A DNA stretch of 64,000 bases from a virus. This document shows positions 10,722 through 55,117 of the stretch, one piece after another. The translations under genes were made by a program, and so were the position numbers. Numbering within the stretch: the first letter of the stretch is position 1; the number at the start of each line of letters is the position of its first letter. The stretch lies in the IMG/VR virus record IMGVR_UViG_3300037418_001469. One strand, written 5' to 3'. Below the pieces are notes generated by a model that was given only the letters and a program-made list of their open reading frames with translations, made no database searches and was not told the origin of the DNA.

Positions 10722-10773
10722 GCAAATGAGATTATATTATATGTATAAGATAGAATTTAAGGAGGAAAACTAA

Positions 10774-22216: not shown

Positions 22217-22350
22217 TTCCTTTCTTTTCCCGCCCGCAAAATTTAAGTTCTAAACTTTAAATTAAAATCATATAATCGACTATAACCGTTATTCAGTGGA
22301 TAACATTCACTGTTAGAATCAAAAAATAAATCATAGGAGCGTGCTTATTT

Positions 22351-23664
22351 ATGAAAAAATCAGATTTTCTAGAAATGAAAGTTCAAAAATCAGGGGAGTC
22401 TTTAAAGGGAATTGCAAGTCTTATTACTCAGTCTTTTGAGGTTGAAGCAATGACAAAAAGTGATGAAGATGTTTTATCTCGCAAATTAGATTCAATTGGC
22501 AAAGGTTTAGCAAGGGATAAAAGTATTAACGATGGTAATGGTTGGAATGATGATGTACACCATGATGTTTCATTAACTTCTTATACTCATGATAATGGTG
22601 GTCTATATGGTACTGAAACAAGTTCTTCACCTATTGATATCTGCAATTGGTTTGAATTGAAAAACTATTTAAATCAAATATTAGACACTTATTTACAAGC
22701 TAGTGGGAATAAAGTTCATTTTACTGTTAGAGGTTCTATGCATGTACACAATACATTATCATATACTTATGATGAGGATTACAACCTTCTTAGTGCTGTA
22801 AAATTAGACATTAACGGTGTCTACCATAATGTGGCTCGTTTTATCCTTAAGTTTATGCCCGTTATGAAATGGTTGGTAATGACTGATAGAAAAGGTGCTC
22901 GTGGGGTTCGTGGTTCATCATATGGTGATAAATTTGATAATGATAGATTATTTTCTTGGTGGTCTGAATATGAGGGTTCTATAGATACTGATAGCACATA
23001 CAGACTAACTCATTTTGATAGAAACTCATGTTTTCGAGTTATGCAAGCTAATTGCTTACACTATGAAAATCGCTTAGCAGATTGTAGTTTTAACGCTACA
23101 CACATTGGTATGTGGTTGTCAATCAATCGTGCAATAACTCTTATGGGTATTGATTTTTCAAGGAATGGTTATTTGTTCAATATCAATGGTGATGATGTAG
23201 AATTATCTAGAGACTTGATGTATCAACATTCTAGAGGTTATAAATACGTTGGCAAAGAATCTATCGAAATGCTATATAAACAGTTTGTTGGATATCTTGC
23301 AAAATATCTTAAAATTATTGGTTCACTAGAAACTATTGAAGTGATGGATAAGTTAATCAAGTGTCCTATTTCAGAATACTTAAATGAGAACAATATTACT
23401 GAGGAATATTGGAATCTAGAGATTATAGAAAAAGTGTTTAATACTAGGAATCGTGCTAGTGATACGGTTCTAAGAGATAGATTCTTAGAAGGTATCAAGG
23501 CTATGCTTATTCCTAATGCGGATAGCTTGAACGACTTCTTAGATAATACTGCAAGTTATCTAGAGGTAGAATCTAAAAAGGTTAAATCATTATATCAGAT
23601 GTTCAAACGTGAAAACGTGGATATTGAGTTCTTAGGTGGTAGACTTGTATATCTTGGGGATTAA
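22351..23664 (+). CDS. Putative COOH-NH2 amidoligase, divergent paralog 1
   Basis: SFEVE, HDVSL, ETSSSP, GSMHVH, HYENRL; C-terminal extension shared with 39658. Confidence 0.62.
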   Translation: MKKSDFLEMKVQKSGESLKGIASLITQSFEVEAMTKSDEDVLSRKLDSIGKGLARDKSINDGNGWNDDVHHDVSLTSYTHDNGGLYGTETSSSPIDICNWFELKNYLNQILDTYLQASGNKVHFTVRGSMHVHNTLSYTYDEDYNLLSAVKLDINGVYHNVARFILKFMPVMKWLVMTDRKGARGVRGSSYGDKFDNDRLFSWWSEYEGSIDTDSTYRLTHFDRNSCFRVMQANCLHYENRLADCSFNATHIGMWLSINRAITLMGIDFSRNGYLFNINGDDVELSRDLMYQHSRGYKYVGKESIEMLYKQFVGYLAKYLKIIGSLETIEVMDKLIKCPISEYLNENNITEEYWNLEIIEKVFNTRNRASDTVLRDRFLEGIKAMLIPNADSLNDFLDNTASYLEVESKKVKSLYQMFKRENVDIEFLGGRLVYLGD

Positions 23665-23726
23665 TTTCCCCTTGGTATTAAGTTATAAGTTTAAAGTTTA
23701 AAATTATATCGTAGGGGGAATTAATA

Positions 23727-24326
23727 ATGAAAGTGTCCGTACAAGTAGCTAGGGAGCAAATGAGAATCTTACTAGGTGCAGGTGCAGAATTTAATTGGAG
23801 AGAGAACTATATTCATGGCACATGGTTAGAGTTTAATATTAAATCATGCTATGCGGATAGAGTAGAAACAATTTGTGATATGATTAGTAATGATTGGGGA
23901 TATGAATTAGACAGAAAAAATAATATTGCTACATTCTCATTATTCGATTTTAATAAGGAGAATACAGTGGAAAAGAAACAACTAATTAAGGTTCGCCAAT
24001 GGTTAACTAGACGAGATAGCAACCCTATTCCAATGCGTACTATGGAATGTGTAGTAGTTAGAGAGACAGCTAGAGCAATTCAGGTAAAGTTGAAGGGACA
24101 TTTAAATCCATCTAGTAATTGCAATCATTGTGGTAGAAAATTAACGCACCCTGTAAGTTTAATGTATGGGCTTGGTCCTATTTGTGGTGGGCATTTTCAT
24201 ATTAACCCTTGTGATAATGAGCAACAATTGAAGGCTCGTTATGATGATATGAAGCGTAAAATGGAAAGTGTAACATGGGAAGGTTGGATACCTAGAAGTC
24301 AAATAGAATCTATGCAAACAGTATAA
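23727..24326 (+). CDS. DUF6011-like Zn-finger protein
   Basis: CNHCGRKLTHPVSLMYGLGPIC. Confidence 0.7.
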   Translation: MKVSVQVAREQMRILLGAGAEFNWRENYIHGTWLEFNIKSCYADRVETICDMISNDWGYELDRKNNIATFSLFDFNKENTVEKKQLIKVRQWLTRRDSNPIPMRTMECVVVRETARAIQVKLKGHLNPSSNCNHCGRKLTHPVSLMYGLGPICGGHFHINPCDNEQQLKARYDDMKRKMESVTWEGWIPRSQIESMQTV

Positions 24327-24710
24327 TATTATATCCTACACTGCCTATAATCTAAAAATAGATTATGGGCAGGAATGTTATAATATTAAATTATAAGGAG
24401 GTGGTAATATGATGACTAGGGATGAATTAATTGCGGAATTATTAAAATTGTCACCCAATGATTGTGTAATTGGTGTCTATGTGGAAAGTATTGATAGTGT
24501 TGTTGATGTTACTGGTGTTGAAATGTATAACGGTGAAATTAATATTAGGGTTGATTATTAAATTATAAGGAGTGGGAAGAATGAGAGACTTATCACATTT
24601 AAGCAAAGAGGAATTACTAAAATTACTATCTGTTATTTATGATAATGCTGATTTTTTCGGTAATGATATGACCACTGGTATTATCTGTAGGGCAGAGGAG
24701 GAAATTAAAA

Positions 24711-26184
24711 ATGTATAAGTGTTATAGCAAGAAACAATTTGAATATTTCTTAAGGAATTTATTAATTGAGAATCGTTTAGGGTTCTTATCTGATGTTACT
24801 GATACACATAATCAAACTTGGGAATATATATATGAAGTTAGTACACGCAATCCATCTGTTAAAGTTATCATCTTTTCTTCCGTTGATAAGCGCACACAAA
24901 AAACTAGAGATAATGGTGATGATAGGGTTCGCTTGGTTCTTAGGTGGACTAACAGGAAAGGCGAACACGTTTATAAGCGGTTAGCTAGACATAACCGTAT
25001 TGAAACACTATTTAACAATGTTAAGAGTACATTATTAAATGCTAATGTATTCAATCTTAACTTGTCAGAGTTTAGCAATAAACTACCATTTTAAAGGAGT
25101 GTTGACAATGGGATTCTCATGTATGAAATGCAAAAAATTTACTACTGATTTAGAGTTTATCACCAAGAAAACGCAACCTAAAAAGTTTGATGATTATACT
25201 AAAATTGGCGTATGTCCTGCATGTAAGGCAAAACGTGAAAAATGGATGAAATCAAGGGGGTTAGCATGATATGTGGATTGTAACTTATTACAATATTAGC
25301 ACTTGGGATAAAGAGTGGGCTGAATTTGATACTCGTTGTGAAGCTATGGACTATGCTATGGAAAGATTAGAAAAGCAAAAAGAGTCTGCATACTTAGATG
25401 GTAAAGTTAAAGTGTTTTCGTCTACCGCAGATGATGAAATAGAAGAACCTAAATTAGCTTATAAACTAGCAAAAATGATGGCTGATTGTATTGACAAAGA
25501 GAATAGTGTTATTACTATTGATGATTTTTATGATAGTGTTGGTATATGTGAATCTAATAGGACTGATTTTGGAACTACTAGTCTTATGAAGGATGCTAAT
25601 AAATACTTGGACAGATGGGGATATTAACAGTGTTATCTGCCTATGATATAAAATTATATCGTAGGTAGCCTAGACTGTTAAAGTCTAAGATTATATTATT
25701 AGGGAGTGTTGGGGATGGCACAATTAAAAGTAGATATTGAAAAATTTGTAGTAGAAAATAAGGAGGAATTAGTTAGTAACTACCTTGCTAAGGTATGCAC
25801 TAAGTTTAAGAGTCAATTATTAGATTTACATGATGCAAGAAAGGGGTATGATGAAATTATTAGCTTTATCCTATCATTAAAGTATAAGTATATAGTATAA
25901 TATTATAGTGAGGTTGTTGTATGTTGTGGCTATCTTTACTACTATTGCAATTCCTACCTATGTTTCTAGCTTGTGTAAAATCTAATAATCAATTATAAGG
26001 AGTGGGGAAAATGACAGATAAGGGAATAATGATGCTAGATAGAATTTTAGTTATGGTAGAAGAAATCAATTCAGAGTTACATTGGCTAGAGGAACTGCCT
26101 ACATTAACATGTGAACAAGCGGATAGATGGCAACGATTAACTATTAAGCATGAAACTATAAAAGAAATTATGGGGATGATGTAA
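24711..26184 (+). CDS. Small hypothetical early proteins (24711-25094, ~25108-25269, 25271-25627, ~25715-25900, ~26011-26184)
   Basis: ORF track with RBSs. Confidence 0.55.
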
Positions 26185-26768
26185 TGACTAGTGGGTTTGG
26201 TGTTATAATAGCGATTGTTGAATTGTTTCTATATTGTAGCTTAGTAGCTTGTATTGGCTATCTTTTAAACAGATTCTTTCCGCCATTCAAAAAATTAGTT
26301 AACTTTCTTGTTAATGCTGATAAATAATAATTGACAGTTTAAAGCTGATAGTATAATATAGAGTTATACCAACTAGAGGAGAGTGTTAGATTGAGAACGT
26401 ATAATCTATTATTAAAGCGTAAAGGTATTATCTGTACTGATACAGTTACTACTAACCCTATCGGTCTAATATTATATCGTTGGAAGAATAGACTTTGGGA
26501 AGTTACGGTTATTGAATAGTAATTGGTGCTTACAATCTGATTTTAGATTGTAAGTAGTCGTGACTAGTCAATGAGTATAGTCAAATATTATATTAGGAGG
26601 TAAGATATGTATATTGTCTCATTTACAGATAATAGCGGAAAAGTGCATGAACATGAGCATGAGTATGAAAGCACTGCTAAATTATTTATTGAACACATGA
26701 AAGAATTTTATCCTAATAGTAATCCTGTTTTAAAAATCAAAAATTAAATTATAAGGGGCGTGGGGAAA

Positions 26769-27188
26769 ATGATTAAAGTAGAAAATAATACTGTAAGTGT
26801 TAATGGGATATCTATTCAATTTGATTCTACAACAAGTCTTAATAGTTTTTTATTAGACTATGTTTCTAAGCATGAGCAGGTTGTTTCGCAAGTTGAAAAG
26901 ATTATTATAGAAAAACCTTTTAATTATAAGCTACAAATGTTAATTGATACTTGTGGGTATATTGAAATTGAAGAACTTGGTTTATCAGTTCGTTCTTTCA
27001 ATTGTTTAAAGCGTGCAGGAATTAATATAATTAAAGATGTTCTAGAATTAGATTATGAGCGTATAATTAGAGTAAGAAACTTAGGGATTAGAAGTATTAG
27101 AGAAATTGAAAGTGTGGTAAATGAGTTCACACGTTCTAATTATATTAATTGGTCTGAATCTTTACCGCCCGTTGCAGTCGAAAATTAA
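26769..27188 (+). CDS. Protein carrying an RNA polymerase alpha-subunit C-terminal domain
   Basis: IEELGLSVRSFNCLKRAGIN...VRNLGIRSIREI, close to bacterial alpha-CTD. Confidence 0.85.
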   Translation: MIKVENNTVSVNGISIQFDSTTSLNSFLLDYVSKHEQVVSQVEKIIIEKPFNYKLQMLIDTCGYIEIEELGLSVRSFNCLKRAGINIIKDVLELDYERIIRVRNLGIRSIREIESVVNEFTRSNYINWSESLPPVAVEN

Positions 27189-27530
27189 ATCTTAAGGAGT
27201 GAGTAGCTTTGGAGAAGAAGGAAATGCAAGGATTTAAAGGAGGAAGCAAAATGAGATTAGTTAAGATGACAATTCATTGGATAATGATGAAGTGGTATTT
27301 TCAATTATGGCATAAGGTTTCAAGAATGACCAATCAAAAATGGCATGACAAATTTTACTATTATGCAGAAACATTGATAAAAATGTGAAAAAACGGGTAC
27401 CAAAAAATTTTAAAAAATTTGGTACCTTTTACTTTTTGACTCGTAAAGTTTTAAGTTGACCATTGACAATTGTTTTCTTATGGTGTATGCTTAGGATAGT
27501 CAAACAAACTAAATTTAAGGAGTGGTTGTA

Positions 27531-28748
27531 ATGTGTAATGATAAAAAACGTACTTATGGAATCGAACTAGAGGGTTATACAGATGAGAATATTAGGGGTA
27601 ATCATATAGGTCAGGGTTGGAAAGTTATTGAAGATGGTTCTTTAAATGATGGAACAGATGAATGTTGTGATTGTGATGGTAGAGGTCACAATGAATGTTA
27701 TCGTTGTGATGGTAGAGGTAATGTTGATTGTGATGATTGTTGCGGTAGTGGTGAAGTTCCTTGCGGTGAGTGTGATTGCACAGGATATATAGAATGCCAT
27801 CATTGTGATGGTGAAGGCGGTAGTTGGGTATCTGATGATGAAGGTGATGAAGATTGGGTAGAATGTGAACATTGTGAAGGCAATAAAACATTAGATTGTA
27901 ATGATTGTAATGGTAGTGGGTATACTACCTGTGAAACTTGTGATGGTGACGGTGAAATTGAATGTGAATCTTGTGATGGTAATGGAAGTTACGAGTGTGA
28001 ATCTTGTGATGGTCGTGGTTCTCATGGTGATGGTGAATACTATGGTGTTGAATGTGTGAGTGGTATCTTAACAGAAGGTGATTATGAGCCTATTAATCAT
28101 ATATTTGACTATATCGAACGCTATGATTGGACTATTGAAGATGATTGCGGTACTCATGTTCATATTGGCGGTGATGATTTAAATGAGAAAGACTTGTCTA
28201 AACTTTATATTCTTGCTAATATTCTTGAGCCTGCTATTTATGGTTCACTTCCTAGTAATCGTATTAATGGCACTTATGCAAAACACACACAGAGAGATAT
28301 GGCAGAATATTTAATTGGAAAAGGAGAGGATATTACATTACAACAATTAGCTGATTATTATTATGGATATAGCGTTAGATTAAACGGACACTTTCAAAAA
28401 TATGATAGCGCTAGATATTATGGTTTAAATTTAAACTCTTGGTTCTATCGTAAGACAATTGAGTTTAGATACTTTGAAGGTGCTATCAATAGAGAGAAAG
28501 CTAATAATTGGATAGAGTTGTGCATTAAGCTAGTAGACTTTGCAAAATATACTACCTTTGAGCAGTTAATGGTTATAGGCAAAGACTTCTATTTGATAGA
28601 TAACCTACAAGAATTACTAGACAAAACAGAAGAATTATTAGGTTTAGAGTATAATATTGGAGCATATAGTAACTACGCATATCAGGAATCAAAGCATAAT
28701 GTAGCAAGTCAATTCAGAGATACTCACATTATTACTCGTGCAGTATAA
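27531..28748 (+). CDS. Putative amidoligase paralog 2 with a DnaJ-like Zn-finger insertion
   Basis: TYGIELE, EDGSL, ten CxxCxGxG-type repeats, GVECVS, CGTHVH, RYYGLN, TIEFRYF. Confidence 0.82.
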   Translation: MCNDKKRTYGIELEGYTDENIRGNHIGQGWKVIEDGSLNDGTDECCDCDGRGHNECYRCDGRGNVDCDDCCGSGEVPCGECDCTGYIECHHCDGEGGSWVSDDEGDEDWVECEHCEGNKTLDCNDCNGSGYTTCETCDGDGEIECESCDGNGSYECESCDGRGSHGDGEYYGVECVSGILTEGDYEPINHIFDYIERYDWTIEDDCGTHVHIGGDDLNEKDLSKLYILANILEPAIYGSLPSNRINGTYAKHTQRDMAEYLIGKGEDITLQQLADYYYGYSVRLNGHFQKYDSARYYGLNLNSWFYRKTIEFRYFEGAINREKANNWIELCIKLVDFAKYTTFEQLMVIGKDFYLIDNLQELLDKTEELLGLEYNIGAYSNYAYQESKHNVASQFRDTHIITRAV

Positions 28749-28881
28749 TAATTGACTATTAGGTGAAGGGGGGATTGTCCCCCTTTCCTAGTATAATCTA
28801 AAATTAAACTATTAAAAATCCTTGTTATTTACTAGGAGGTTTAGTATAATATGTATATACATTAAATTAGGAGGTAGAATT

Positions 28882-29274
28882 ATGGAAAGTAATTATCGTA
28901 CTATTGAGGTGAAGTTGGGCAATTATATTAAGAGATTTGAAATGAGAGATACTTATATTGGTACTTTTGTAGTGGACAATAAGCTATTTAATGTTATTGG
29001 CACTCAACATTCAATGGAAAGGCTAGACGAACGTAACATAAACAAGTATCATATTTTGTCTAGCATTGTCGGATTAGGTGAAAAACTTGCGACACACAAT
29101 AATAGTGGTAAGCACATTATTATTAGTGACGAAAAGAAAGATATCTCTACTATCTTTACAATCGAAAATTTCACTGTAGTATTAATTACTGTGTTGGACA
29201 GAGGACAGATGTATATTTCTCCCAATGTTACACATAAGCGGACAGTCATTGAAACGTATGATAATGTTGGTTAA
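28882..29274 (+). CDS. Possible BECR/DUF4258-like ribonuclease-fold protein
   Basis: TQHSMERLDERNI and C-terminal VLITV strand. Confidence 0.4.
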   Translation: MESNYRTIEVKLGNYIKRFEMRDTYIGTFVVDNKLFNVIGTQHSMERLDERNINKYHILSSIVGLGEKLATHNNSGKHIIISDEKKDISTIFTIENFTVVLITVLDRGQMYISPNVTHKRTVIETYDNVG

Positions 29275-29376
29275 TTAATTAGTGATTGGTTGCCTAGAGT
29301 TGATTATTTGATTCTAGGCAAGGGGTGACTAATTAAAAACTAGTCTAAAATTAGATTACAAGGGAGATTGATAGGT

Positions 29377-30093
29377 ATGACATTTAAAATTGAGGGACAA
29401 TGTGTAGCTTGTGAAAATATGGCAGTAGATGAAGTACTAGATGAGACTATGGTAGAATATTTGAGTGTGTGTGACGATTGCTACAAAGAAGTATTTATCA
29501 ATGTTGCTAATAGTGGGGAGCAATATTTCTTTGAGTGGGCAGAAGAAATGTATGGTACGGAAAAAGCAGTAGGACTAACAAGTGAAATTTTTGGTCAAGA
29601 GTCTACTATTAGATTAGGAGTTGAAGATATGGGTAAAAAGCGGAAAAGAAAAGAAAATGAAAGAATGATAACTATGTTTACTTATGGCATATTAAAATAT
29701 CCTTACAACATTAAACGTGAAGGCGGTATAAATATAGTCGAAAATTCGTTTATAAGAGGACATAAAATGCATCTTTATGCTAGTTCGTTCCCTATTACTA
29801 GAATGACTAATGATGATACAGATTTTGTTTATGGCACACTATTTGAAGTACCTGAAAGTCAAGTATTATACTCTTATGATTTTACAGAAGGATATAACCC
29901 TAAAGCACACCCTTCTATGAATATGTATAATAGAATAGAGGTTGAAGTAGTTAAGCCTAATGGTGAAATTGTAATTGCTAATATGTATTATGCTAATCAA
30001 AGACAGTTTGCCCAACATTTGAATAATAACACATGGATTCCTACAGGAAATTTTGATGATAGACAAATGGCTAAGTCATACAAAAGGAAGTGA
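29377..30093 (+). CDS. Gamma-glutamylcyclotransferase (AIG2-like); possible internal start at ~29628
   Basis: FTYGILK, VYGTLFEV, YDFTEGY, YNRIEV, ANMYY. Confidence 0.8.
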   Translation: MTFKIEGQCVACENMAVDEVLDETMVEYLSVCDDCYKEVFINVANSGEQYFFEWAEEMYGTEKAVGLTSEIFGQESTIRLGVEDMGKKRKRKENERMITMFTYGILKYPYNIKREGGINIVENSFIRGHKMHLYASSFPITRMTNDDTDFVYGTLFEVPESQVLYSYDFTEGYNPKAHPSMNMYNRIEVEVVKPNGEIVIANMYYANQRQFAQHLNNNTWIPTGNFDDRQMAKSYKRK

Positions 30094-30336
30094 TGCTATG
30101 AAAGATTGTCTAGGTCTTTTCTTACTTGGACTTGGTGGAATATATTTATTCTTCTTATTGATTGTTTGTAACCTATAAAATTAAACTATAAACTTTTAGT
30201 TGACAATTGAAAGTGAGGTATGCTATGATTGAGGTAGCTAATACAGTAGTGATTGCAGTTTGTCTTTGTTGGTTCGGTTCTTATATTGTAATAATAGACT
30301 ATAAGGCAAACAAAAAATTGAAAGAGGGTAGATAAT

Positions 30337-31784: not shown

Positions 31785-31914
31785 AATGTTAAGGTTGTGG
31801 TAAGATATAATAGTAAACAGTAAGGGATAATGCACCTAGAAAATAAAAAAACAGTTGACAAATGAAAGTTGAATGTGGTAAGATTAAACTAACAAATATT
31901 AAGGAGTGTTGTAA

Positions 31915-32814
31915 ATGAATGAAAAGTTAAAGGTGACACGCACATTAGGATTTGAAATTGAGTGCTTTGCAGATGTACCTTCTCGAACAGATAGTTGGGG
32001 TGACACATATGTTGATTATGATGATGTATCTATTCGTAATTGCGAAGTTAGTACTGATGGTTCATTATATGGAGGTAGCGGTACTCCATTAGAAGCAAAG
32101 ACAGACCCTATTAAAAATCTTAATATTGTAGAAGAAGTTTATAAAGAGTTAAGCGGAATGGATATGAACGTAAATAAAACCTGTGGTCTACATATTCATG
32201 TAGATACTAGCGACTACACAATTGAGGATAAAGCAAAGTTGTTACGTTTTGGAGCAGGAATTGAATTACTAATGTTCGCATTAGTTGACAAGTCTCGTCA
32301 AGGAAACGAATATACAGAAAAACTTCATAAAGGTTGGAGAAAGTTATTTCGTTCCAATTTTATGACGCAAAGTATTCCTTTTGATTCTTTTAACAATTTT
32401 AGTCAATTAGAAAGATATATACAGAATAACTCTACACATAGAGATGCTAGACATATTTGGAATGGTAGATACCAATGGTTAAATGCAGTAGTTAGTCATT
32501 GTCCTACCGCAGAGTTTAGAATCTTTAGCGCTACTACTGATTATAAACAAGCACAAAAGTTTGGCATGTTAGCCTATCATATCGTAGAAACAATCAAAAA
32601 TTCTACTATAGAACAAGTAAGGTTCATTATTCAATCTATCTATCAAAGTCAATCAGTGGACGAAATGCTTGACAGACTATTCGACTCTATTGGATTAGAC
32701 GGTGAGTTCAGACCTGAAATTTTAAATGATAAAATGGCTGAATATATTGACAATAAGTTCTGCAAGCCTATTCGTGAGCGTGAATTAGTAGGCGGTGAGC
32801 AACGAGCAGTTTAA
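31915..32814 (+). CDS. Putative amidoligase paralog 3
   Basis: TLGFEIE, TDGSL, EAKTDP, CGLHIH, RYQWLN, TAEFRIF. Confidence 0.85.
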   Translation: MNEKLKVTRTLGFEIECFADVPSRTDSWGDTYVDYDDVSIRNCEVSTDGSLYGGSGTPLEAKTDPIKNLNIVEEVYKELSGMDMNVNKTCGLHIHVDTSDYTIEDKAKLLRFGAGIELLMFALVDKSRQGNEYTEKLHKGWRKLFRSNFMTQSIPFDSFNNFSQLERYIQNNSTHRDARHIWNGRYQWLNAVVSHCPTAEFRIFSATTDYKQAQKFGMLAYHIVETIKNSTIEQVRFIIQSIYQSQSVDEMLDRLFDSIGLDGEFRPEILNDKMAEYIDNKFCKPIRERELVGGEQRAV

Positions 32815-32860
32815 AAAAGTTGTTGACAGTTGAAAGTTGATGTGCTAAGATAGTATTACA

Positions 32861-33007
32861 GTAAGCAATCCTCTAGGGAGGGACGGACACCCTCCTCTCA
32901 TGAAGCCCATCCTCCTTGAGTAAGAGGAAAATTATTTTAAATTGGTAAGGGGACTACAGGAGATTGACTGACTATCTATCTCTTGCCTTGCCTAGAGGAT
33001 TGCTTAC
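32861..33007 (+). ncRNA. Structured ~147-nt leader or sRNA
   Basis: Perfect 17-bp closing stem just downstream of the promoter at 32823, with internal hairpins. Confidence 0.55.
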
Positions 33008-33040
33008 AATAAAATAATAGACTATTGGAGGTTATTGTGA

Positions 33041-33940
33041 ATGAGAATGAAGAAGGACTTATTAAAAGGTATTGAACTAGGTAGAACTATTGGAGTAGAA
33101 GTAGAAGGTTACACTGGAATGTATCGTTCAATGGTTAACAACGGGGTAAGACATAGTTCAACTAAATATGATGGCAGTCTAGGACAGTCTAGAGCTAGTC
33201 AAGGTATTGAAGTAGTAACTAAGCCTATTAAACAACTAGATTTGTTAGATGAAGTATTTGAGGATATCACTAAGTATCAGTGGAATGTTGGCAGAGGAAA
33301 GGCAGGCACTCATGTACATGTTGATGCTAGAGACTACAACGTATTAGACAGAATTAAGATGGCAGTATTTATGAATCTGATTGAAAAGGCTATGTTTTTA
33401 ATGGTGAAAAAGTCTAGATGGAGTCGCAACAGCTATGGAAGAAATACTTATTGCAGACCTGTTAGTGGTGGTTGGAAAGACTTATTAAATAAGCTAAATA
33501 CGGACTATCCTGAATTTGACATAACCAAATACGGAAATATCGGACCTTTGCAGTATGATATTATTAACAAACGTAATCTGAACTATAACAGACTAATCAC
33601 TCCTAATACTATTCGCTATCAGTTTGTGAATATATGGTCATCTAGCCACAATACAATTGAATTTAGAATCTTTCATGCTATCCGTTCGGCAAAAGATGCT
33701 AAGCTATTCTCATTAATGGCATACCACCTAGTAGAAATAGTCAAACATTCTACTCTAGAACACTTAGAGTATCTTGCTGATGAAATCATGAATCAATCAA
33801 CTAGTGCTGAAAACATGCTAGAAAGATTTTCTCAAGCTATTGGACTTGATTTTATTCCCAAGATTTACAATGCTGATTTAAAAGCTATAATAGATAGAGA
33901 TAAGCGTGTCGGTGCAAGAACTTCATTTGTTGCGGTATAA
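33041..33940 (+). CDS. Putative amidoligase paralog 4
   Basis: TIGVEVE, YDGSL, GIEVVTKP, AGTHVH, RYQFVN, TIEFRIF. Confidence 0.85.
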   Translation: MRMKKDLLKGIELGRTIGVEVEGYTGMYRSMVNNGVRHSSTKYDGSLGQSRASQGIEVVTKPIKQLDLLDEVFEDITKYQWNVGRGKAGTHVHVDARDYNVLDRIKMAVFMNLIEKAMFLMVKKSRWSRNSYGRNTYCRPVSGGWKDLLNKLNTDYPEFDITKYGNIGPLQYDIINKRNLNYNRLITPNTIRYQFVNIWSSSHNTIEFRIFHAIRSAKDAKLFSLMAYHLVEIVKHSTLEHLEYLADEIMNQSTSAENMLERFSQAIGLDFIPKIYNADLKAIIDRDKRVGARTSFVAV

Positions 33941-34718
33941 TATTAAACTCTACCCTTCGGGGTAGGGTTAGGGAACTAAATTATAAAATTAAATTATAAG
34001 AAAGGTAGTGGACACCATGAACGAACAGATGTATAATAGGTATGTACAGTTGATTAATAGACGCTACAAATATGATAACACTAATATGAAAAGATATGGG
34101 CTAGTGCTAAAACTTATGGCTTGGCAATACAATGTAGGTAGAAACAAAGAGGAGGTAATGTAAAATGTACGTTATTCAAAACAGACAAAAGGGTGAGGGC
34201 TTCTATTGTGGAATCTTGTATCATGGTGAGGTTGGTTATTATACTAGTTTTTTTCCAAACCTCAACTTCAAAGAGGTAAAGAAATATGACACTAAAGAAC
34301 AAGCTAAATTCGACTTCTATTATCTAGTGGACATTTGGAATGTTGACCTTGGATTCCTTGAAATAGTACCTGTTGAATTGGTGGTAAAAACAGATGAATA
34401 ATGACTATATACTATTGTTCATGATGATAGCACTTCTTGTAGGTTCATTAATATATAGGGTGTGGAAAGACGAACAAGATTTTAAGAAGGCACACAATAA
34501 GCGTAAAAAGAAAAAGTTTTGGATATAATACAATAATAGACTTTAAGGAGGTGATTCTTATGGCAATTAATCTTAAGAAAAAACCTTTCGCAAATTTAAC
34601 TAAGAAAGTTTTAAAAAAGTAGTTGACAGTTGATAACTGATATGATACAATTAAGAAGTGGTAAGGGAGAGGTTATTCTCTCCCACAAAAAAATCTAAAA
34701 TAAAAGGATGATGTGAAT

Positions 34719-34736
34719 ATGTGTGGAATCAAGTAG
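34719..34736 (+). pseudogene. Truncated GATase 5' end (MCGIK*)
   Basis: Follows a duplicate of the promoter, leader and RBS of gene 35416. Confidence 0.65.
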
Positions 34737-34812
34737 AGCATAAAGTTTCCTCCAATGAGAAGAATATATAATAACGTGGAATTAAATATTATATTCTTAG
34801 GAGGAATTAGAA

Positions 34813-35319
34813 ATGAGCAAAGGTAAACAGTTAAAAAGCAAAGAAGAAGTAGTCGAAAGATTTTGGTCTTATGTAGATAAGGCAGATGGTTGTTGGAATT
34901 GGTTAGGAAGTAAGAATAACAAAGGCTATGGTCAATATCCAACGGTAGTTAAGCATGAAATATTCGACTCTAAGCTAGTACACAGAATAAGCTACTATCT
35001 TAATAACGGTGCTTATGATAGAAAATTAGATGTTTGTCATAAGTGTGATAATCCTTCATGTGTAAATCCTAGTCATTTATTCTTAGGTACTAGGTCTGAA
35101 AACATGATAGATTGTGTAGAAAAAGATAGGCATGATACTAGTAAGAAAGCTAAAGGCGAAAGAAGTGGTAGAGCAAAACTAGATTGGACTAAGGTTAGAG
35201 AGATTAGAGAGAAGTATGCTAAGGGTAATACTTCAACTAGAAAGTTAGCTACAGAATATGGTGTAGACAACAAGGCTATACATGCTATAGTTCAAAACAG
35301 AACTTGGATTGAAAAATAA
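34813..35319 (+). mobile_element. HNH homing endonuclease with C-terminal HTH
   Basis: CWNWLG...GYG, VHRISY, VCHKCDNPSCVNPSHLFLGTRSEN. Confidence 0.9.
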
Positions 35320-35415
35320 CAGTTGACAATTGAAAGTTGATATGGTAAACTTAAGAAGTAGTGAGGGGGCTAACCTCCTCCTACTAAAAAATCTAAAATA
35401 AAAGGATGATGTGGA

Positions 35416-36654
35416 ATGTGCGGTATAAACGGAATGGTTTTCTTAAAAGGTGTAAAACGTGATGCTCAAATGATGGCTAAAGTACGCTTTATCTTTGATG
35501 AATTAATGGTTGAGACTATGGATAGGGGCGAACATGCTACTGGATTAGCTAGCTTTAAGCGTGATGGAAGTTACGAATTTCATAAGAAAAATATCAATGC
35601 AGATAAAATGACTACAGAAGATGAAAAATATCGTGAAATTGTTGCTAACTTTGACGGTGAAGATACTAGTGTAGTAATCGCTCATACTCGCTACATGACT
35701 CAAGGAACAGCAACAAACATGGATAATAATCACCCATTTGATATTGGCAATATCGTCGGACTACATAATGGTTCGGCAAAGAATGACAATATTCTATTCA
35801 ATGAATATAAAGATAAGTTTACTCGTATTGGTCAAGTTGACAGTGAAATTGTGTTTCAATTAATTAATCACTATAACCAAGATGATATTACATTAAAAGG
35901 CTTAACAAGTGCATTGGAGGATACTAAGTTAAGAGGACTATTTGCACTAGCTTTTGTCCACAAGAACAATCCTAATATGTTACACTTAGTTAAGCAAGAA
36001 AAACCTATGTACATTGCTTATTGGAAAGAGGCAGGAATTGTTATTTTCAACTCGATTGACGACTACATTATCAAGGCTTTCCGTAAATTAGAGCGTATAG
36101 GATTCTCATTCGGACTAAAAGACACCAAGCAAAGTGTAGAGATTAAGAAAGTTACTGATGATAGATACTTCACTGTTAATGCTGATGCTGAAACAGTAGC
36201 AGATGCTATTAGTGATGAAGTTCGTTTGTATATCGAATCTTCTTCTTACACTTATTACAAAAGTGGTGTAACAACTACAACTACTACCACTAATAAGACC
36301 ACTAAGGCAACTGTTGAAGGTAAGCGTGAAAAAGTAACTGCTACAGATAGCAAAGGTTTAGTGTTGCAAGGTGAAATTGACACTGCTACAGGTGAGGTTA
36401 TTATTTGGTCTAATGATGATATTAATGATGCTGATGATGGTAGTGGTCTAAATGATGTTGAGGAATTGTCTTGCTTTGAGTGTAATGAATTAATCACAGA
36501 AACAGATATAGATGCTAGCTACAATCGTGACAATCCAAAAGACGAGTGCATTTGTTTCGATTGCTACACTGAAATCATGAACACATATGTAAATGATATG
36601 CTCGATGAAAGAAAGGAAGAATCTGTTGATTGCGATGGTCAAAAGATAGGCTAA
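35416..36654 (+). CDS. Class II (Ntn) glutamine amidotransferase 1
   Basis: N-terminal MCGI, RGEHATG, HTRYMTQG, NNHPF, HNG, VDSE. Confidence 0.9.
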   Translation: MCGINGMVFLKGVKRDAQMMAKVRFIFDELMVETMDRGEHATGLASFKRDGSYEFHKKNINADKMTTEDEKYREIVANFDGEDTSVVIAHTRYMTQGTATNMDNNHPFDIGNIVGLHNGSAKNDNILFNEYKDKFTRIGQVDSEIVFQLINHYNQDDITLKGLTSALEDTKLRGLFALAFVHKNNPNMLHLVKQEKPMYIAYWKEAGIVIFNSIDDYIIKAFRKLERIGFSFGLKDTKQSVEIKKVTDDRYFTVNADAETVADAISDEVRLYIESSSYTYYKSGVTTTTTTTNKTTKATVEGKREKVTATDSKGLVLQGEIDTATGEVIIWSNDDINDADDGSGLNDVEELSCFECNELITETDIDASYNRDNPKDECICFDCYTEIMNTYVNDMLDERKEESVDCDGQKIG

Positions 36655-36712
36655 TGTGGAGGGAGTAATCCTTCCTTTGGGATTTAAAATTATACTATAA
36701 AGAGGTGGTGCT

Positions 36713-37933
36713 ATGATACACTTCCATAAGTACAAAGAAGTTGATAGGTACTTAATGTTTACAGGTGAAGATGCAGTTATCTATAAGTGTGAAAAATGCA
36801 ACAAAGAAAAGGTTAAATACACATTAGAGACTTATATTGGTTTGAAAGATGCACTACCGTATAAAGAGTGGTTAAAATCTAAAAATATATCATAAGGAGT
36901 GGTGTTTATGAAATGGATAGCCTTAGTTAAAATAACAGATTGGCAAATGTTACATTCATGGCATAGCGGAAGTTGTGACACATACAAGTCTAAAGCTAAC
37001 TTGGAAACAAAAGAACAAGCAGAAGAATTTATTAATGAAGTGGAAAAACTTTATGAAAGTCATTACAATATCCATCGTAGCGACAGTGATAAATATAGAT
37101 TAAAACCATGTATTCTAAGCTATGATGAATCTCAAAGCGAGAATGTGGAGAACTTCTTTAGATACATGTAATCTAAAATTAAACTATAAGGAGTGTTGAA
37201 TATGATATTAGAGAATAGGTTTGGTTTATTTGTAGACGATAAGAAAATAATTATTGAAACTAATTGTGATGAAGAAGTTTTTGAAAAAGTTGTTAAATTG
37301 GTTGTTGACCATGCTATGTACTATAACATAGAACAAGTGCTTGATGTAATTAAATCATTAGGTTATGAAGCTGAGTATCTTGATGATAGCACTAATAAAG
37401 ATTTTGATTTTTAATCTAAAATTATACTATAAGGAGTGCGTGATATGATGGAGTTTACTTATAAGATGAATATATTTGGAGAAAATGACAGCTATATGAT
37501 ACAAACAGATTGTCCACTTGATACATTCAGAAAGGCAGTAGATTTCGTGAGATGCGTAAAAGATTATGATGGTTATACATTGTTAGAGGTACTAAAAGTG
37601 ACAGGTTATAATGCTGAATTTTTTGAGCCTGATAATATTACTGGAACATTTAGTTTTTAATCTAAAATTAAACTATAAGGAGTTGATAATATGACTTTAA
37701 GAGAGATAATTAAAAATCAAATATTAGATTCTACAAATGAACTAAATGTAGAACTAAGTAATGAAGAACTAAGGATTGCAATAGCAGGAGTTGAACATTG
37801 TGTCAGTGAATGTATGGCTGATTCAGTAAGTGATGCAATTTCAGGTGTTCTTTATGATAGAAAATTAGATTCTAATTTCCCACAAGATATGCCTGATTCA
37901 TTTAAAAATTTCATAAAAGAAAGGAGCAAATAA
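36713..37933 (+). CDS. Small hypothetical proteins, including paralogs ~37202-37414 and ~37445-37660
   Basis: Bounded by near-identical TAATCTAAAATTA(A/T)ACTATAAGGAGT at 37169, 37412, 37658. Confidence 0.6.
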
Positions 37934-38006
37934 AAATGACTTTTAAAATAACTGTTGACAATACAAAACTGATACTGTATGATGTTATTAAAGGAGGAAA
38001 TACAAC

Positions 38007-38270
38007 ATGAACAACATGACATTCGCAGATTATATCAAGATTAAACGTGCAGAAAAGAATCTTTCAAGAAGTGAAATGGCAAGGAGAGCAGGCTTTACTC
38101 CCCAATATGCTATGGATATTGAAAGAGGTAATATGATACCTACAGAAGATAAAATTGAAAGCCTTGTTAATGTTCTTGAATTAGATGAAAGATTAGCTTT
38201 TCAATTAGCTGACAAAATTCCTTTAAGAATATATGAGCAAGCTAAACAGAAATTCTTTGGTGAGGAGTGA
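38007..38270 (+). CDS. XRE-family HTH regulator
   Basis: RAEKNLSRSEMARRAGFTPQYAMDIERG; own promoter at 37955. Confidence 0.85.
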   Translation: MNNMTFADYIKIKRAEKNLSRSEMARRAGFTPQYAMDIERGNMIPTEDKIESLVNVLELDERLAFQLADKIPLRIYEQAKQKFFGEE

Positions 38271-38274
38271 TTAA

Positions 38275-39644
38275 ATGCCTGTATCATTGGAAAAAGATTT
38301 TCCATTTCGATTAGAGCCACAAGTAATATGTAGTTGCGGTAAAATTATCTATGAAATAGATACAATGTTTTGCTCAGGTTGTGGTGATGTAACATGTGAG
38401 AATTGCTACACTGATTGTTTTGATTGCGGTAAGATGTATTGTAGTAATTGCTCTGAAAACACTTCACAATGCCTAAGATGTAACATAAACAGTAATATAA
38501 AAGTACCTGATGAAAAAGCATTTCTAGTTATCAATGGAGTTACAACACCAATTAAGAACAGTGCTTTTATGATACAAAAGACCTCACTTGTTAATGCTAG
38601 AGACATTAGGCTTACTCTTAATGGAGTAGAGTATAGATATACTTATCGTTCATTGACACAAACAGAAAATGATAAAATGATATATGATTACCACTTATAT
38701 TTTGAAGAAGTAAAACAAGTAGCGAATATGAACGATGAAGAATTTGCAATAAGTGTGAGAAATGCTTTAAGAAGTTTCAATGAAACGCATGGATTAGCAG
38801 ATGAATACGATGATTATAGCACATTAGGTTGGTGATAATATGTCAAAAGGGTACTATGATTGCTATGGATATTTTGCAATAGACCGTCCTCATAACACCT
38901 ACCCGATAAAAAATGTTGAGCGTCACTTAGAGTCTATTCTTTCACTAAAGAAGGGTGACGTTCTTAATCTTAAAGGAATTGGTGATTTACAAGTCATAAA
39001 TTTAAATATTGATGAATATAATTATCGTGACAAAGGTAAAGATTGTCTTTATCAAGAGATTGGAATAGTATGTATAACAATATAATATTAAACCTTAGTT
39101 GAGGGGGTTGTCTTGTGCTACATGTGGTTAGTATGAAAGTGTATGGCATAGATGAAAATGGTGACGATGAAAGGCAATGGTATAAGATTAAGAACGGGGA
39201 GGAAGTTCTTAATATGGAATTATGTAGCGGTGATAAAATTCTAATAGATGGCATAGGCAACCTAGAAATACTCGGACTTCACTACAAAAGCGAAGAAACA
39301 GGCACTCACCCTTACAAGTCACTAGAAATAACTTGTGGGTTAATTACAAACGAATAATTTAAAATTAAACTATAAAAAGTAGTTGACAGTTTAAAGTTGA
39401 CTATGTTATACTTAAAGTACAGTAAGCGAAGGAGCTGATTGGTATGATAGGTAATTCTAAATTCAACATGTGGACTATAACATATATAAACAAAAAAGGA
39501 TTACACTCAAATATTGAATGTCAGGATAAGGCAGAACTCTCTATTGAATTGTCTTACTTACGAGAAAACGGTCAAGATATGGAATACGTCAATGTATTTC
39601 CTCCAAAAAGTAACCTTACTTATGATGAATTATTAAACTATTAA
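38275..39644 (+). CDS. Hypothetical proteins (Cys-rich 38275-38835; paralogs 38840-39085 and ~39133-39357; 39444-39644)
   Basis: ORF track; shared GD..L.GIG.L.(V/I) motif. Confidence 0.55.
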
Positions 39645-39657
39645 GGAGTGTTGTTCA

Positions 39658-40959
39658 ATGAGAATGTTTGATTACTTACTGTTTAACGATAGATTGGGTA
39701 AATTATCCACTAGAGATTGTGAATATTGGCAAATGATGTTCCGTAAGATTCTAAAAGTTGGTGAAGAGTTCGAAGTGCAAGCACCTAGAAACAAAGACTT
39801 AGATGATGTGTTTGATACTTTTAATCGTGCTTTTAATCCTTCTCGCTCTATTCATCATCATGGTCAACATGGTGTCAAAGAAGTAATGGGTGATGGTTCT
39901 GTACCTCATGGTGTAGAAGTAGTAACAGTAGGCAAACGGTTTGATTGGAAAACATTCTATCAAATGAATGAGCATATCATGGATACATTCGCTAAAAATG
40001 ATATTCAAACTTCACATCATACAGGAATGCATATCCACTTACTAGCAGGATATACTAACAATGACATGACAGAATTAGAACGTAATGTACCTGAAATTAT
40101 TTTAGCTAACTTTTATCAACTTCACCGTATCTTTGCACCTGAACTATATTGGATTGCTAGTGGTGGAAAAGATGATTATGCTATCACTCGATATATGTTA
40201 TTTAGACGACCACCATTTGACTATTCGGCTACCAATACTGCTATGAGCATTATCAGAGAAGAAATGAACGAACGTTATGGTAAATATCAGATGTTCAACA
40301 TGAATCATTCTAGATTCAGTAGGAGAGAGTTGTCTACTTTCCATGTTGAGATTAGACACCCTGACACACACTTGTCTCCTGCGGTATCAACAGCCTTAGT
40401 TGCCCTAGAAGTAGCATTGTTGCATAAAGCAATCGACCTATCTCAATGCGGTATTATTTCTATTAAACAAGATGAGTACGACTTTAAGAAAGCTATCTTT
40501 GATAAGTTTGTCAATATGGGTACTGGTGACAGAGAATCTGATAGTACCGATTTAGACCAAGATGATATTGAGAACTTGCAATTGCGTACTAGTGCAATGA
40601 TTCGTTGGTTAAAAGGAGAAATCTATAATTTAAATCCAATTGCCTATGACATTCTTAAAAAGATTGCGGTTACTCCATCATCATTAATGAGAATCAACGG
40701 AATGTCTTGGAGTCAAATTGATGAAAAGATTTATACTCCACGAATGATTGACCGAGAGAATGTTGATAAGCTACTAGAAATGATTGTTCTTCAACAAATT
40801 ACAGATTGTGGTAATGGTGGAGAATGGATTGATAAAGCTAGTGAACGCTTGCGACTTCCAATAGAAAAGACCAATCAACTTCTAAAAGATATTCAACTAG
40901 AGAAAGTAATGGTCTTTGATGATGAACTAGGCTCAATGTTGATGAAACAAATAGTCTAA
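39658..40959 (+). CDS. Putative amidoligase paralog 5
   Basis: VGEEFE, GDGSV, GVEVVT, TGMHIH, KYQMFN, HVEIRHP. Confidence 0.75.
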   Translation: MRMFDYLLFNDRLGKLSTRDCEYWQMMFRKILKVGEEFEVQAPRNKDLDDVFDTFNRAFNPSRSIHHHGQHGVKEVMGDGSVPHGVEVVTVGKRFDWKTFYQMNEHIMDTFAKNDIQTSHHTGMHIHLLAGYTNNDMTELERNVPEIILANFYQLHRIFAPELYWIASGGKDDYAITRYMLFRRPPFDYSATNTAMSIIREEMNERYGKYQMFNMNHSRFSRRELSTFHVEIRHPDTHLSPAVSTALVALEVALLHKAIDLSQCGIISIKQDEYDFKKAIFDKFVNMGTGDRESDSTDLDQDDIENLQLRTSAMIRWLKGEIYNLNPIAYDILKKIAVTPSSLMRINGMSWSQIDEKIYTPRMIDRENVDKLLEMIVLQQITDCGNGGEWIDKASERLRLPIEKTNQLLKDIQLEKVMVFDDELGSMLMKQIV

Positions 40960-41210
40960 TATTATATCGCAATTAAAGAGGGCTATGCCCAAGCAGATTA
41001 ACTTCTCCAAGTCGCTATCCCTCTTTAATATATAATCAAAAATTCGATTGTAGGAGTGTGTATCATGAGTGAGATTAGAGACAGAATAGAAGAACTGGAA
41101 AATAGAAAAAGCAGTATGGAAAGCATATTAGATTCAATTAATGATGAATTGAATGAACTGTATCAAGTAGAGAGTGAATTAGAATATAATAATAGACTGT
41201 AGGTGATACT

Positions 41211-41780
41211 ATGTTTATTGCTAAAGGAACGAAAGTAAAAGTTGGAAACTCACAGGTAGTACTAAGTCAAGAAACTGGATACTATCAACTAATTGAGCAA
41301 GTAGAAAGAATATATCCAATTTTAAAAGTAGTAGGTTTTAGATTTATTAGCAAAGACACAATGGTTTTATTGACAACAGAAAAAGAAGGTGATAGTGTGG
41401 TAATCCCAAAAGGAACGACTGTTTCATTTGTTGCTAATGGAGAACTTCAAAAGTATGAATTAGAAATGAATGCTACTATTGATATGGTCGAAGAGTCTAT
41501 CTTAGAATGGTTTGAAGGCTATAGAGAAGAGTCTTTATGCTTCAACGGTATAAACTACATGTTTCCTAATATAGCGTCAGGATATGCGATTATTGAAGGC
41601 AAGATGGCAGAACGTTTTGAAGAAGAAAATAAAAAAACATACTTTTCAATGAAAGATGTAAAAAATGTACTTACGCTTGGGGTAAGAAAAGGTGACACAT
41701 TGCACCTAAAAGGTTACTCTAGCTTTAAAGTATCTAGTGTTGACTTTGGCAATAATATGATTTGCCTTTCACTTGAGTAA
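41211..41780 (+). CDS. Hypothetical protein
   Basis: ORF; internal repeat (I/P)KGT.V. Confidence 0.55.
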   Translation: MFIAKGTKVKVGNSQVVLSQETGYYQLIEQVERIYPILKVVGFRFISKDTMVLLTTEKEGDSVVIPKGTTVSFVANGELQKYELEMNATIDMVEESILEWFEGYREESLCFNGINYMFPNIASGYAIIEGKMAERFEEENKKTYFSMKDVKNVLTLGVRKGDTLHLKGYSSFKVSSVDFGNNMICLSLE

Positions 41781-41875
41781 AAAATTTAAAAAAGTAGTTG
41801 ACAACTGACATTGGATAGTGTAATATAAAGGTATAGCAAAAAACAAAATTTGAAAAACGAAAGAGGTAATGTGAA

Positions 41876-42994
41876 ATGTGTGGAATCTTCGGCTTAATGA
41901 TGTACTCAAAACAACGTACAAAGGAAGAATTACGATTCATTAAGGAATTAGCGACAGAACTAGCTATTGAAAATCAGGCTCGTGGCACTCACGCAACTGG
42001 TATTGCTACATTCGGAAAAAATGGCAATGATGTACTAAAGCACAACGTATCTGCTGATGAACTTACAAGCTATGCTACATGGTGGAATTTCTTAGATAAG
42101 AATATTAGTGATAATACTTACAATATCCTTGGTCATACTAGATATGCAACTCAAGGCTCTCCTGATAACAATGATAATAACCATCCTATCGTGACAGCTA
42201 GTGCAATTGGTATTCACAACGGTTGGATTAATAATGATGATAGCTTATTCAACAAAGAGAATTTGTTTAGGCAAGCAGAAGTTGATAGTGAAGTAATTTT
42301 TCGACTAGCTGATAAAGAAATTGGCAATGACAGAGAGAATACAAAGACAATGGCAGAAAAACTAGCAGGAGTGTACGCAGTAGCATTTGTTAAAAAGAAT
42401 GAACCACATATCCTTAACTGGTTTAGAAACAACAACCCTACTACATTCGCTTATATTCCTGAATTAAATATCACTGTATTTGCTAGTCTACAAGCATACA
42501 TTAAGAGTGCAATTGCTACAGTAAATGCCTCTGTATACTATGAAACAGGATTCTCAGTAAGTGAGCAAATTGAATACTTCTCACCTATTCAAGATACTAT
42601 CATGCAATTCGATGTAACTGAAAACACTCCTATCCAACAACTAGCACAAGAACCTTTACGATTTCAAGAATCATACGATTACTCATATGGTGGTTATGGC
42701 TATAGCAAAGGTGCTTGGTTTGATGAAGAGTGGTACGACTACCGCACTGACAGACAACAAGAAGAAGAACATGCTAATTCAATTGAAAGCATTTATGAAT
42801 TTATCGAAGAAAAGAATCTAGAATATTTTATGAGTACTGATGAATATGCTGAAATGATTGAATTGCTAGACCAAAATGAAAAAAACGAATGGTCTAAAGG
42901 CTATAAGGCAGGAAGAGAATCTACTGAAAACGAAATTAAACTACTCAAAGAACAAGTCAGAACATTATCGCTAGGAGCTAAACTAGCTAACTAA
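41876..42994 (+). CDS. Class II (Ntn) glutamine amidotransferase 2
   Basis: MCGIFG, RGTHATG, GHTRYATQG, NNHP, HNG, VDSE. Confidence 0.9.
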   Translation: MCGIFGLMMYSKQRTKEELRFIKELATELAIENQARGTHATGIATFGKNGNDVLKHNVSADELTSYATWWNFLDKNISDNTYNILGHTRYATQGSPDNNDNNHPIVTASAIGIHNGWINNDDSLFNKENLFRQAEVDSEVIFRLADKEIGNDRENTKTMAEKLAGVYAVAFVKKNEPHILNWFRNNNPTTFAYIPELNITVFASLQAYIKSAIATVNASVYYETGFSVSEQIEYFSPIQDTIMQFDVTENTPIQQLAQEPLRFQESYDYSYGGYGYSKGAWFDEEWYDYRTDRQQEEEHANSIESIYEFIEEKNLEYFMSTDEYAEMIELLDQNEKNEWSKGYKAGRESTENEIKLLKEQVRTLSLGAKLAN

Positions 42995-55099: not shown

Positions 55100-55117
55100 T
55101 ATAGGAGTGTTGTAAAT

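Follow-up and report, generated by a model that had tools for sequence, protein, structure and literature searches.

Why should a phage encode five predicted carboxylate-amine ligases together with two glutamine amidotransferases (GATases) and a gamma-glutamylamine cyclotransferase (GGACT), and do these enzymes act on one target or on many? The question is raised by a stretch of 64,000 nt from an uncultured soil phage (IMG/VR record IMGVR_UViG_3300037418_001469), referred to here as the window, in which the genes concerned occupy the plus strand of a 33% G+C region between 22351 and 44111 (Table 1). The initial annotation had regarded the set as a five-fold expansion, suggestive of a system that writes and erases tags on many targets or of a hetero-oligomeric enzyme. 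According to the analysis presented here, the set consists of five distinct ligases with a predicted glutamine synthetase (GS) fold, two class-II GATases with a catalytic Cys1 and one GGACT, and it is very probably an enlarged and rebuilt variant of the amidoligase cassette of phages phiEco32 and LUZ24. We infer, with a probability of about 45%, that the enzymes form a single co-regulated early pathway, which would make and trim gamma-glutamyl-type amide bonds on a probably macromolecular target.

The enzymes of the locus

Three of the ligases fall within a described family. The GS-fold assignment of the products of open reading frames (ORFs) 27522, 31915 and 33041 (ligases 2, 3, and 4) was made through Pfam PF12224 (Amidoligase_2), which has a gathering cut-off of 22 bits. 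Ligase 2 carries the zinc finger-like insertion seen in the initial annotation, located at residues 45-165 and with 23 cysteines, CxxC repeats and a net charge of -31; a Cys-rich insert is likewise present in its orthologue in a second IMG/VR phage (G001; 157.8 kb, estimated 88% complete). Ligases 3 and 4 are short forms that are 33% identical to each other (E 3e-40) and have the stretch AYH.VE..K.ST.E in common, as had been proposed. Their best matches in G001 are two different genes, at 10772-11644 for ligase 3 (E 3e-51) and at 21564-22454 for ligase 4 (E 7e-49), a pattern consistent with a duplication that preceded the divergence of the window phage from G001.

Ligases 1 and 5 (ORFs 22351 and 39658, about 430 aa each) have no match in Pfam, PHROGs or NCBIfam, and neither reaches the Amidoligase_2 cut-off (no match at E<=0.01). 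However, both have relatives from which family profiles could be derived: the 22351 family (A1 type) comprises 29 homologue clusters in a collection of 5.8 billion proteins, and the 39658 profile (A2 type), searched against 1.84 billion proteins, retrieves 300 representative clusters with E<=1e-3. Invariant in the alignments of both families are an ExE strand, D(G)S, E-x-(S/T), HxH, and ExR; the ExE, HxH, and ExR columns, which bind metal and ATP, are invariant also in the alignment of the Pfam-positive paralogues (A3). In profile-profile comparison with hhalign, A1 and A2 align over 353 columns, C-terminal extension included (96.7%, E 4e-10), and A2 aligns with the Pfam-positive paralogues at 88.6% (E 2.6e-6) with DGS, E..T, HxH, and ExR in register; the direct comparison of A1 with these paralogues is weak (27%). 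The kinship of the two proteins to Amidoligase_2 is thus visible solely at the level of profile-profile comparison and of fold. The possibility that A1 is instead a ligase of the PF14395 type was tried with hhalign, which found nothing.

The fold was examined on AlphaFold2 models of both proteins, which have pLDDT values of 86.3 (22351) and 86.9 (39658). Foldseek matched both models with YbdK/GCS2, GshA, the bifunctional GshF, glutamine synthetases and PafA/Dop at E-values of 5e-7 to 1e-6, and a GS-like architecture is therefore predicted for both. In an exhaustive VIA search, the catalytic domain came closest to YbdK/GCS2 and the glutamate-cysteine ligases (1r8g, 1tt4, and 2gwc; Z 19-19.5, about 269 residues, root-mean-square deviation (rmsd) 3.1-3.6). 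For instance, residues 30-352 of the 39658 model match the plant glutamate-cysteine ligase 2gwc with a Z of 19.5 (269 residues, rmsd 3.1) and 1tt4 with a Z of 19.0. These enzymes are only 7-16% identical to the phage proteins, lack a winged helix and act on free amino acids. When the A2 profile was compared with PDB sequences, the catalytic domain found no match, and a weak one (E 0.41) was returned for the winged-helix domain of MCM.

The C-terminal extension of both proteins, suggested earlier to resemble a winged helix-turn-helix (wHTH), is borne out by the models. Residues 363-433 of 39658 match the winged helices of NiaR, ScpB, Z-alpha, and BirA (VIA Z 6.5-8.3, about 60 residues, rmsd 2.3-3.6), and for the C-terminus of 22351 (residues ~360-437) the ten structure neighbours in the Atlas are without exception wHTH families. 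The two winged helices are acidic to neutral, with net charges of -5 and -1, which argues against simple DNA binding. Both proteins are accordingly predicted, from models and motifs, to be GS-fold carboxylate-amine ligases, and by their profiles they constitute separate families outside the coverage of Pfam. Together, the motifs, the profile links and the models bring the predicted GS-fold ligases to the five that had been claimed, all of which keep the catalytic ExE/HxH/ExR set. None of the five matches PF14395 (COOH-NH2_lig, the phiEco32-like type 2) in Pfam.

The two GATases were correctly recognized as N-terminal nucleophile (Ntn) amidotransferases with acidic tails. Both score well above the 27-bit cut-off of GATase_6 (51.8 and 52.1 bits), begin with MCGI, so that a cysteine directly follows the initiator methionine, and contain HTR, HNG, and DSE motifs, whose Arg, Asn-Gly, and Asp we take to be the residues that in GlmS and PurF bind the alpha-amino-acid end of glutamine. 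They are 35% identical to each other over 221 aligned residues and weakly similar to EgtC and GlmS. Their tails have net charges of -23 (GATase 1, with 6 cysteines) and -20 (GATase 2). The G001 orthologue of GATase 1 is 44% identical to it.

The beginning of GATase 1 is duplicated. On each side of an HNH homing endonuclease gene lies a copy of the promoter, the leader and the MCGI start of GATase 1 (34610-35480); the upstream copy reads MCGIK followed by a stop codon, and the downstream copy runs on into the enzyme. The HNH gene is an intruder and stands outside the enzyme system. A comparable arrangement, with an HNH gene between the amidoligase and the GATase, is found in the LUZ24-like phage UFV-P2 (PMC3890496).

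The eighth enzyme, annotated initially as an AIG2/GGCT protein, scores 35.2 bits against a PF06094 cut-off of 22.8 bits. Its cyclotransferase domain spans residues 103-229, covers profile positions 1-118 of 120 and displays YGIL and EGY motifs (YGxL and the catalytic glutamate). Upstream of this domain lies a zinc ribbon whose motif, C..CE...C.DCY.E, is also found in the tail of GATase 1, and the G001 orthologues of GATase 1 and GGACT retain these ribbons. The PHROGs matches are in accord with the Pfam assignments of ligases 2-4, of both GATases and of GGACT.

Promoters and related phages

The claim that most of these genes have a promoter of their own also stands. A generic promoter scan gave no excess over shuffled sequence (112 vs 109.5), and the promoter family emerges only when strand and position are taken into account: between 21000 and 45300, TTGACA-N16-18-TAnnnT occurs at 14 sites on the plus strand and at 1 on the minus strand, and 11 of the 14 plus-strand sites are intergenic, though intergenic DNA makes up only 18% of this stretch. 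The promoters of the family are near-identical, and the sites upstream of 27522, 31915, 33041, 34813, 35416, 39444/39658, and 41876 have a consensus of about 40 nt in common, in which an A-rich UP-like element precedes TTGACA and a conserved spacer (TTGAAAGTTGA) leads to a TG-extended -10. The enzyme genes thus appear to be individually but uniformly promoted, and membership of all these promoters in one family implies that the genes are co-regulated. A consensus of the host sigma-70/sigma-A type makes early expression likely. The enzyme genes are co-directional, but they do not form a compact single operon; they are dispersed among at least 20 other ORFs and about ten promoter copies.

In G001, a separate best match is found for each of the five ligases, for both GATases and GGACT, and for the products of ORFs 23727, 28822, and 43029. 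Orthologues in the two phages are 30-58% identical and their gene order differs; three adjacencies are nevertheless kept, namely ligase 1 with the DUF6011 protein (23727), 28822 with GGACT, and GATase 2 with 43029. The one-to-one orthology points to an old, maintained complement rather than a recent expansion. With an orthologue for each enzyme at this distance, and with ligases 1 and 5 in separate families, the five-fold expansion does not represent a lineage-specific burst.

The A1 profile, run against metagenome and viral contigs, found only two short contigs in addition to G001, and in a protein collection the product of ORF 22351 is present on contigs of up to 173.6 kb. Near-identity and tblastn searches of a cultured-phage collection came up empty for the region and for ligases 1 and 5, and yielded no more than distant matches for the remaining components. 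In four more distant, large uncultured phages (L003-L006, one of them a jumbo phage with a 268-kb genome), a 39658-type ligase is followed by a short and then a long GATase, the same core as in the window, with an AAA+ gene of the RuvB/clamp-loader type a few kb downstream, as in the window. GATase 2 has its best match among the short, 270-aa GATases of these phages. Their A2-type ligase is about 560 aa long and, unlike ligase 5, has some 120 aa of Cys-rich sequence inserted close to the N-terminus. Their other ligases differ as well, being of the PF14395 type (up to three) and of the RimK-like ATP-grasp type, in place of the three PF12224 ligases and the A1 type of the window. For instance, the L005 block also holds two PF14395 genes and a RimK-like ATP-grasp gene, and outside this block the L005 genome has a GGACT and one more PF14395 gene. 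In the same phage, the ATP-grasp gene is followed by a 152-aa ORF (17022-17480) with a GNAT-like motif, recognized by eye, whose product might cap a reaction product with an acyl group.

Among the large phages, the full set, with five or six ligases and a GGACT, was seen in G004 and G005. PF14395 matches number 2-4 in each of G003-G005 and are absent from G001 and G002, and no ATP-grasp gene was found in G001 or G002. Judged by these sequence matches, the large phages resemble one another in ligase count (five or six) but differ in the families that supply the ligases.

The best-described relatives are the cassettes of phiEco32 (phi32_77-88) and LUZ24 (gp14-gp22), which were reportedly predicted from genomes by Iyer, Abhiman, Burroughs and Aravind in 2009 (Mol Biosyst 5:1636). 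In both phages a PF14395 ligase, a PF12224 ligase, a long GATase, a RimK protein and a GGCT are encoded in one operon beside primase and helicase genes. The earlier description of such cassettes as carrying a single amidoligase is therefore inaccurate, since phiEco32 and LUZ24 have three (PF14395, PF12224, and RimK ATP-grasp) and other large phages five or six. The products of phi32_87/88 and of LUZ24 gp14/15 were considered as further, hidden ligases and rejected, having neither the motifs nor a profile match.

The likeness of the window to these cassettes lies in the combination of GS-fold amidoligases, Cys1 class-II GATases and a GGCT/AIG2 protein in a non-structural region beside replication genes. 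Homology to window proteins is detectable for the GATase, the GGCT and one amidoligase, and a CxxC-rich C-terminus like that of GATase 1 is present in the long GATase of either phage. On the other hand, the window has five GS-fold ligases where phiEco32 and LUZ24 have two, and two of the five lie outside Pfam and carry a winged helix; it has two GATases in place of one; and where those phages have a compact operon, its genes extend over 20 kb and are individually promoted. A PF14395 ligase is absent from the window, as is a RimK-type ATP-grasp ligase among the 50 window ORFs scanned, which include all those of at least 250 aa but neither some ten of 120-170 aa nor any that are shorter still.

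One pathway or many targets

In the pathway that we prefer, the five ligases would be non-redundant steps. Each would convert a carboxylate to an acyl-phosphate with ATP and then join it to an amine, and at least one step would yield a gamma-glutamyl-type amide. The Ntn enzymes would either feed ammonia to a ligase, leading to amidation, or hydrolyse gamma-glutamyl amides in the manner of EgtC, and GGACT would strip N-terminally free gamma-glutamyl groups as 5-oxoproline. The enzymes would dock on a common, probably basic macromolecule, with a host protein as the first guess, rather than carry out free small-molecule chemistry. Macromolecular docking is suggested by the winged helices of two ligases and by the zinc ribbons and acidic inserts or tails of ligase 2, GATase 1, and GGACT, and these features lead us to rank a basic protein as target above wall precursors and small amines, and these above nucleic acid. 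One multi-step pathway is favoured because the genes have one promoter type, because the podophage homologues form a single operon and because common docking modules occur on different enzymes. In addition, linked peptide ligases commonly catalyse successive ligations (PMC4431377). A similar division into a writer and an eraser that cleaves an amide at a glutamyl linkage is seen in the Pup ligase PafA and the depupylase Dop, whose fold is GS-like (Z 15-16); there, the eraser Dop is a second GS-fold protein, whereas the candidate erasers of the window are Ntn and GGACT enzymes.

Several points weigh against this pathway. The function of the phiEco32-type cassette is described as still to be explored (PMC10580990, PMC5498523, PMC11945000). 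The enzyme genes are scattered across 20 kb between small unrelated genes, and each has a promoter to itself, an arrangement that fits independent targets equally well. The closest structural neighbours of the ligases, the glutamate-cysteine ligases and YbdK, act on small molecules, and the winged helices are acidic or neutral. Furthermore, no small ORF between 21 and 46 kb ends in a GGQ- or GGE-like tail as would be expected of a Pup-like tag.

The rival that survives best, though unlikely, is that of the initial annotation, in which the ligases would each mark a host protein or metabolite of their own and the marks would be erased by the GATases and GGACT. Dispersed genes with a promoter for each ligase are what such a system would be expected to show; the ligases also persist as distinct orthologues and differ widely in size, isoelectric point (4.3 to 9.5) and appended domains. 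A single promoter family speaks for co-regulation instead, the tight operon of the podophage homologues is typical of a single pathway, and an identical zinc-ribbon motif recurs on two different enzymes. Common promoters and acidic or zinc-binding docking modules thus lean toward one pathway over many independent targets.

It is less likely that the enzymes modify peptidoglycan precursors, with stem-peptide carboxylates being amidated or re-ligated in the cytoplasm in order to block superinfection or prepare lysis. MurT/GatD and the AsnB-type amidation of meso-diaminopimelate follow such a logic, in which a GATase works with a ligase that activates a carboxylate, and the conserved core of an A2-type ligase and two GATases would fit an amidotransferase complex. 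The phiEco32-type cassette has been termed a 'peptidoglycan modification' module on these lines, with superinfection block or lysis preparation as its proposed roles (PMC10580990, PMC5498523, PMC11945000), a proposal that remains a prediction for the cassette. In the window, no wall-related domain is found among the Pfam and PHROG matches, signal peptides and membrane segments not having been screened; the ATP-grasp ligase of the three-linkage scheme is not found, and winged-helix and zinc-ribbon modules are unusual on enzymes of wall precursors.

We consider it rather improbable that the set gamma-glutamylates polyamines, thiols or another metabolite, or installs a protecting group, as in BtrJ/BtrG, EgtA/EgtC, and PuuA/PuuD, and so rewires host metabolism or neutralizes a defence signal. 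The top structure matches are indeed glutamate-cysteine ligases and YbdK, the GATases are weakly EgtC/GlmS-like, GGACT enzymes act on gamma-glutamyl amines, and genes of NAD salvage (NAMPT and a PRPP-synthetase-like gene) lie in the same early region. However, the enzymes carry docking modules of the macromolecular type (winged helix, zinc ribbons, and long acidic tails), and neither G001 nor the L-phages conserve a transporter or another biosynthetic gene alongside the set.

A bolder form of the preferred pathway, which we regard as a long shot, would have the five ligases act as a ribosome-independent assembly line that furnishes a host macromolecule of basic character with a defined mark, a gamma-glutamyl-linked peptide or amide, docking through the acidic zinc-ribbon modules and the winged helices, with editing by the Ntn and GGACT enzymes. 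If true, it would represent phage protein tagging without a gene-encoded tag.

A single hetero-oligomeric enzyme, in which some paralogues serve as non-catalytic scaffolds, is very improbable: GS-fold enzymes usually oligomerize and the paralogues are always kept together, but all five have the full set of catalytic motifs, invariant within families, and they differ strongly in size and inserts. Hypermodification of DNA or RNA bases by amide ligation, with the winged helices on nucleic acid, can be practically dismissed despite the wHTH domains of two ligases and the proximity of the cassette to replication genes in several phages, as these domains are acidic or neutral and the window, which has a thymidylate synthase (390 bits) and a thymidine kinase, displays no base-modification genes.

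Neighbouring genes and wider meaning

Three genes adjoin enzyme genes in a conserved manner. The DUF6011 protein, whose Cys/His motifs look zinc-binding by eye, is encoded downstream of ligase 1, and its G001 orthologue likewise follows the ligase 1 orthologue. The product of 28822 matched no family in the scans, and that of 43029 had no match in Pfam, PHROGs or NCBIfam. The latter was tried as the missing ATP-grasp ligase, and the product of ORF 30337 as a second GGACT; in neither case did BLASTP find similarity.

Table 1. Features of the locus and other annotated genes of the window.
Feature	Position	Strand	Evidence or remark
Ligase 1 (A1 type), GS-fold carboxylate-amine ligase (predicted), C-terminal winged helix	22351..23664	+	Family motifs and AlphaFold2 model
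DUF6011 protein	23727..24326	+	Pfam E 1.3e-7
Example promoter (17-nt spacer with TG, TAnnnT)	27450..27491	+	Alignment
Promoter copies	27463, 30200, 31855, 32823, 34623, 35323, 37955, 39383, 41798, 44175	+	Fronting most genes of the region
Ligase 2, Amidoligase_2 with acidic Cys-rich insertion	27522..28748 (likely start ATG 27531)	+	PF12224 E 3.8e-27, 96.2 bits
150-aa protein (or ~130 aa), upstream partner of GGACT gene	28822..29274	+	45% identity to G001 ORF directly upstream of GGACT orthologue
GGACT/AIG2 gamma-glutamyl(amine) cyclotransferase, N-terminal CxxC..CxxC ribbon	29368..30093	+	PF06094 E 2.1e-8; PHROG 2520 E 1.6e-14
Ligase 3, Amidoligase_2 short form	31915..32814	+	PF12224 E 3.2e-12, 47.3 bits
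Ligase 4, Amidoligase_2 short form, basic, pI 9.5	33041..33940	+	PF12224 E 1.8e-9, 38.2 bits
HNH homing endonuclease	34813..35319	+	HNH_3 E 4e-11; inserted at start of GATase 1
GATase 1, Cys1 Ntn class-II domain (residues ~1-230), acidic Thr-rich linker, C-terminal CxxC..CxxC ribbon	35416..36654	+	GATase_6 E 1.1e-13
Ligase 5 (A2 type), GS-fold (predicted), C-terminal winged helix	39658..40959 (likely start 39664)	+	Structure match, motifs
GATase 2, Cys1 Ntn class-II domain, acidic helical tail	41876..42994	+	GATase_6 E 8.9e-14
360-aa protein, downstream partner of GATase 2	43029..44111	+	Orthologues follow GATase 2 in G001 and L002
SLOG/YspA-like protein	48-578
ClpP-like protease	1999-2604
Thymidylate synthase	3414-4334
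Thymidine kinase	6427-7017
GH15-like protein	7666-8724
Macro-domain protein	12782-13495	minus

Other genes in and around the locus are recorded here in their own right. A RuvB-like AAA+ protein of full length (RuvB_N, lid, and RuvB_C; clamp loader according to PHROGs) is encoded at 44224-45249, and in every related phage examined such a gene follows the ligase/GATase core on its downstream side. A free-standing homologue of the RNA polymerase alpha C-terminal domain, with a weakly phi29 gp4-like N-terminus, is found at 26760-27188 (Pfam E 1.5e-18). Between GATase 1 and ligase 5 there are tandem pairs of small ORFs at 37193-37660 (73/74 aa) and 38840-39357 (81/80 aa), judged paralogous by eye, as well as a product with a CxxC-rich N-terminus (38275-38835). 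Further downstream, a gene for a phosphoribosyl pyrophosphate (PRPP) synthetase-like protein adjoins the NAMPT gene (50916-53675), a possible NAD-salvage or anti-defence pair, and a TerF-like vWA protein is encoded beside a TerC-family membrane protein (54371-55894).

Among phage enzyme sets that have yet to be assigned a product, the phiEco32-type amidoligase cassette is one of the most widespread. The window contributes a second architecture of this system, with ligases of the predicted GS fold only, five in number, two of which belong to families absent from Pfam. A core consisting of a winged-helix ligase and two Ntn amidotransferases is common to distant large phages, and more than one enzyme of the set bears zinc-ribbon and acidic docking modules. 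Taken together, the three features supply a minimal core for reconstitution and candidate bait domains for finding the target.

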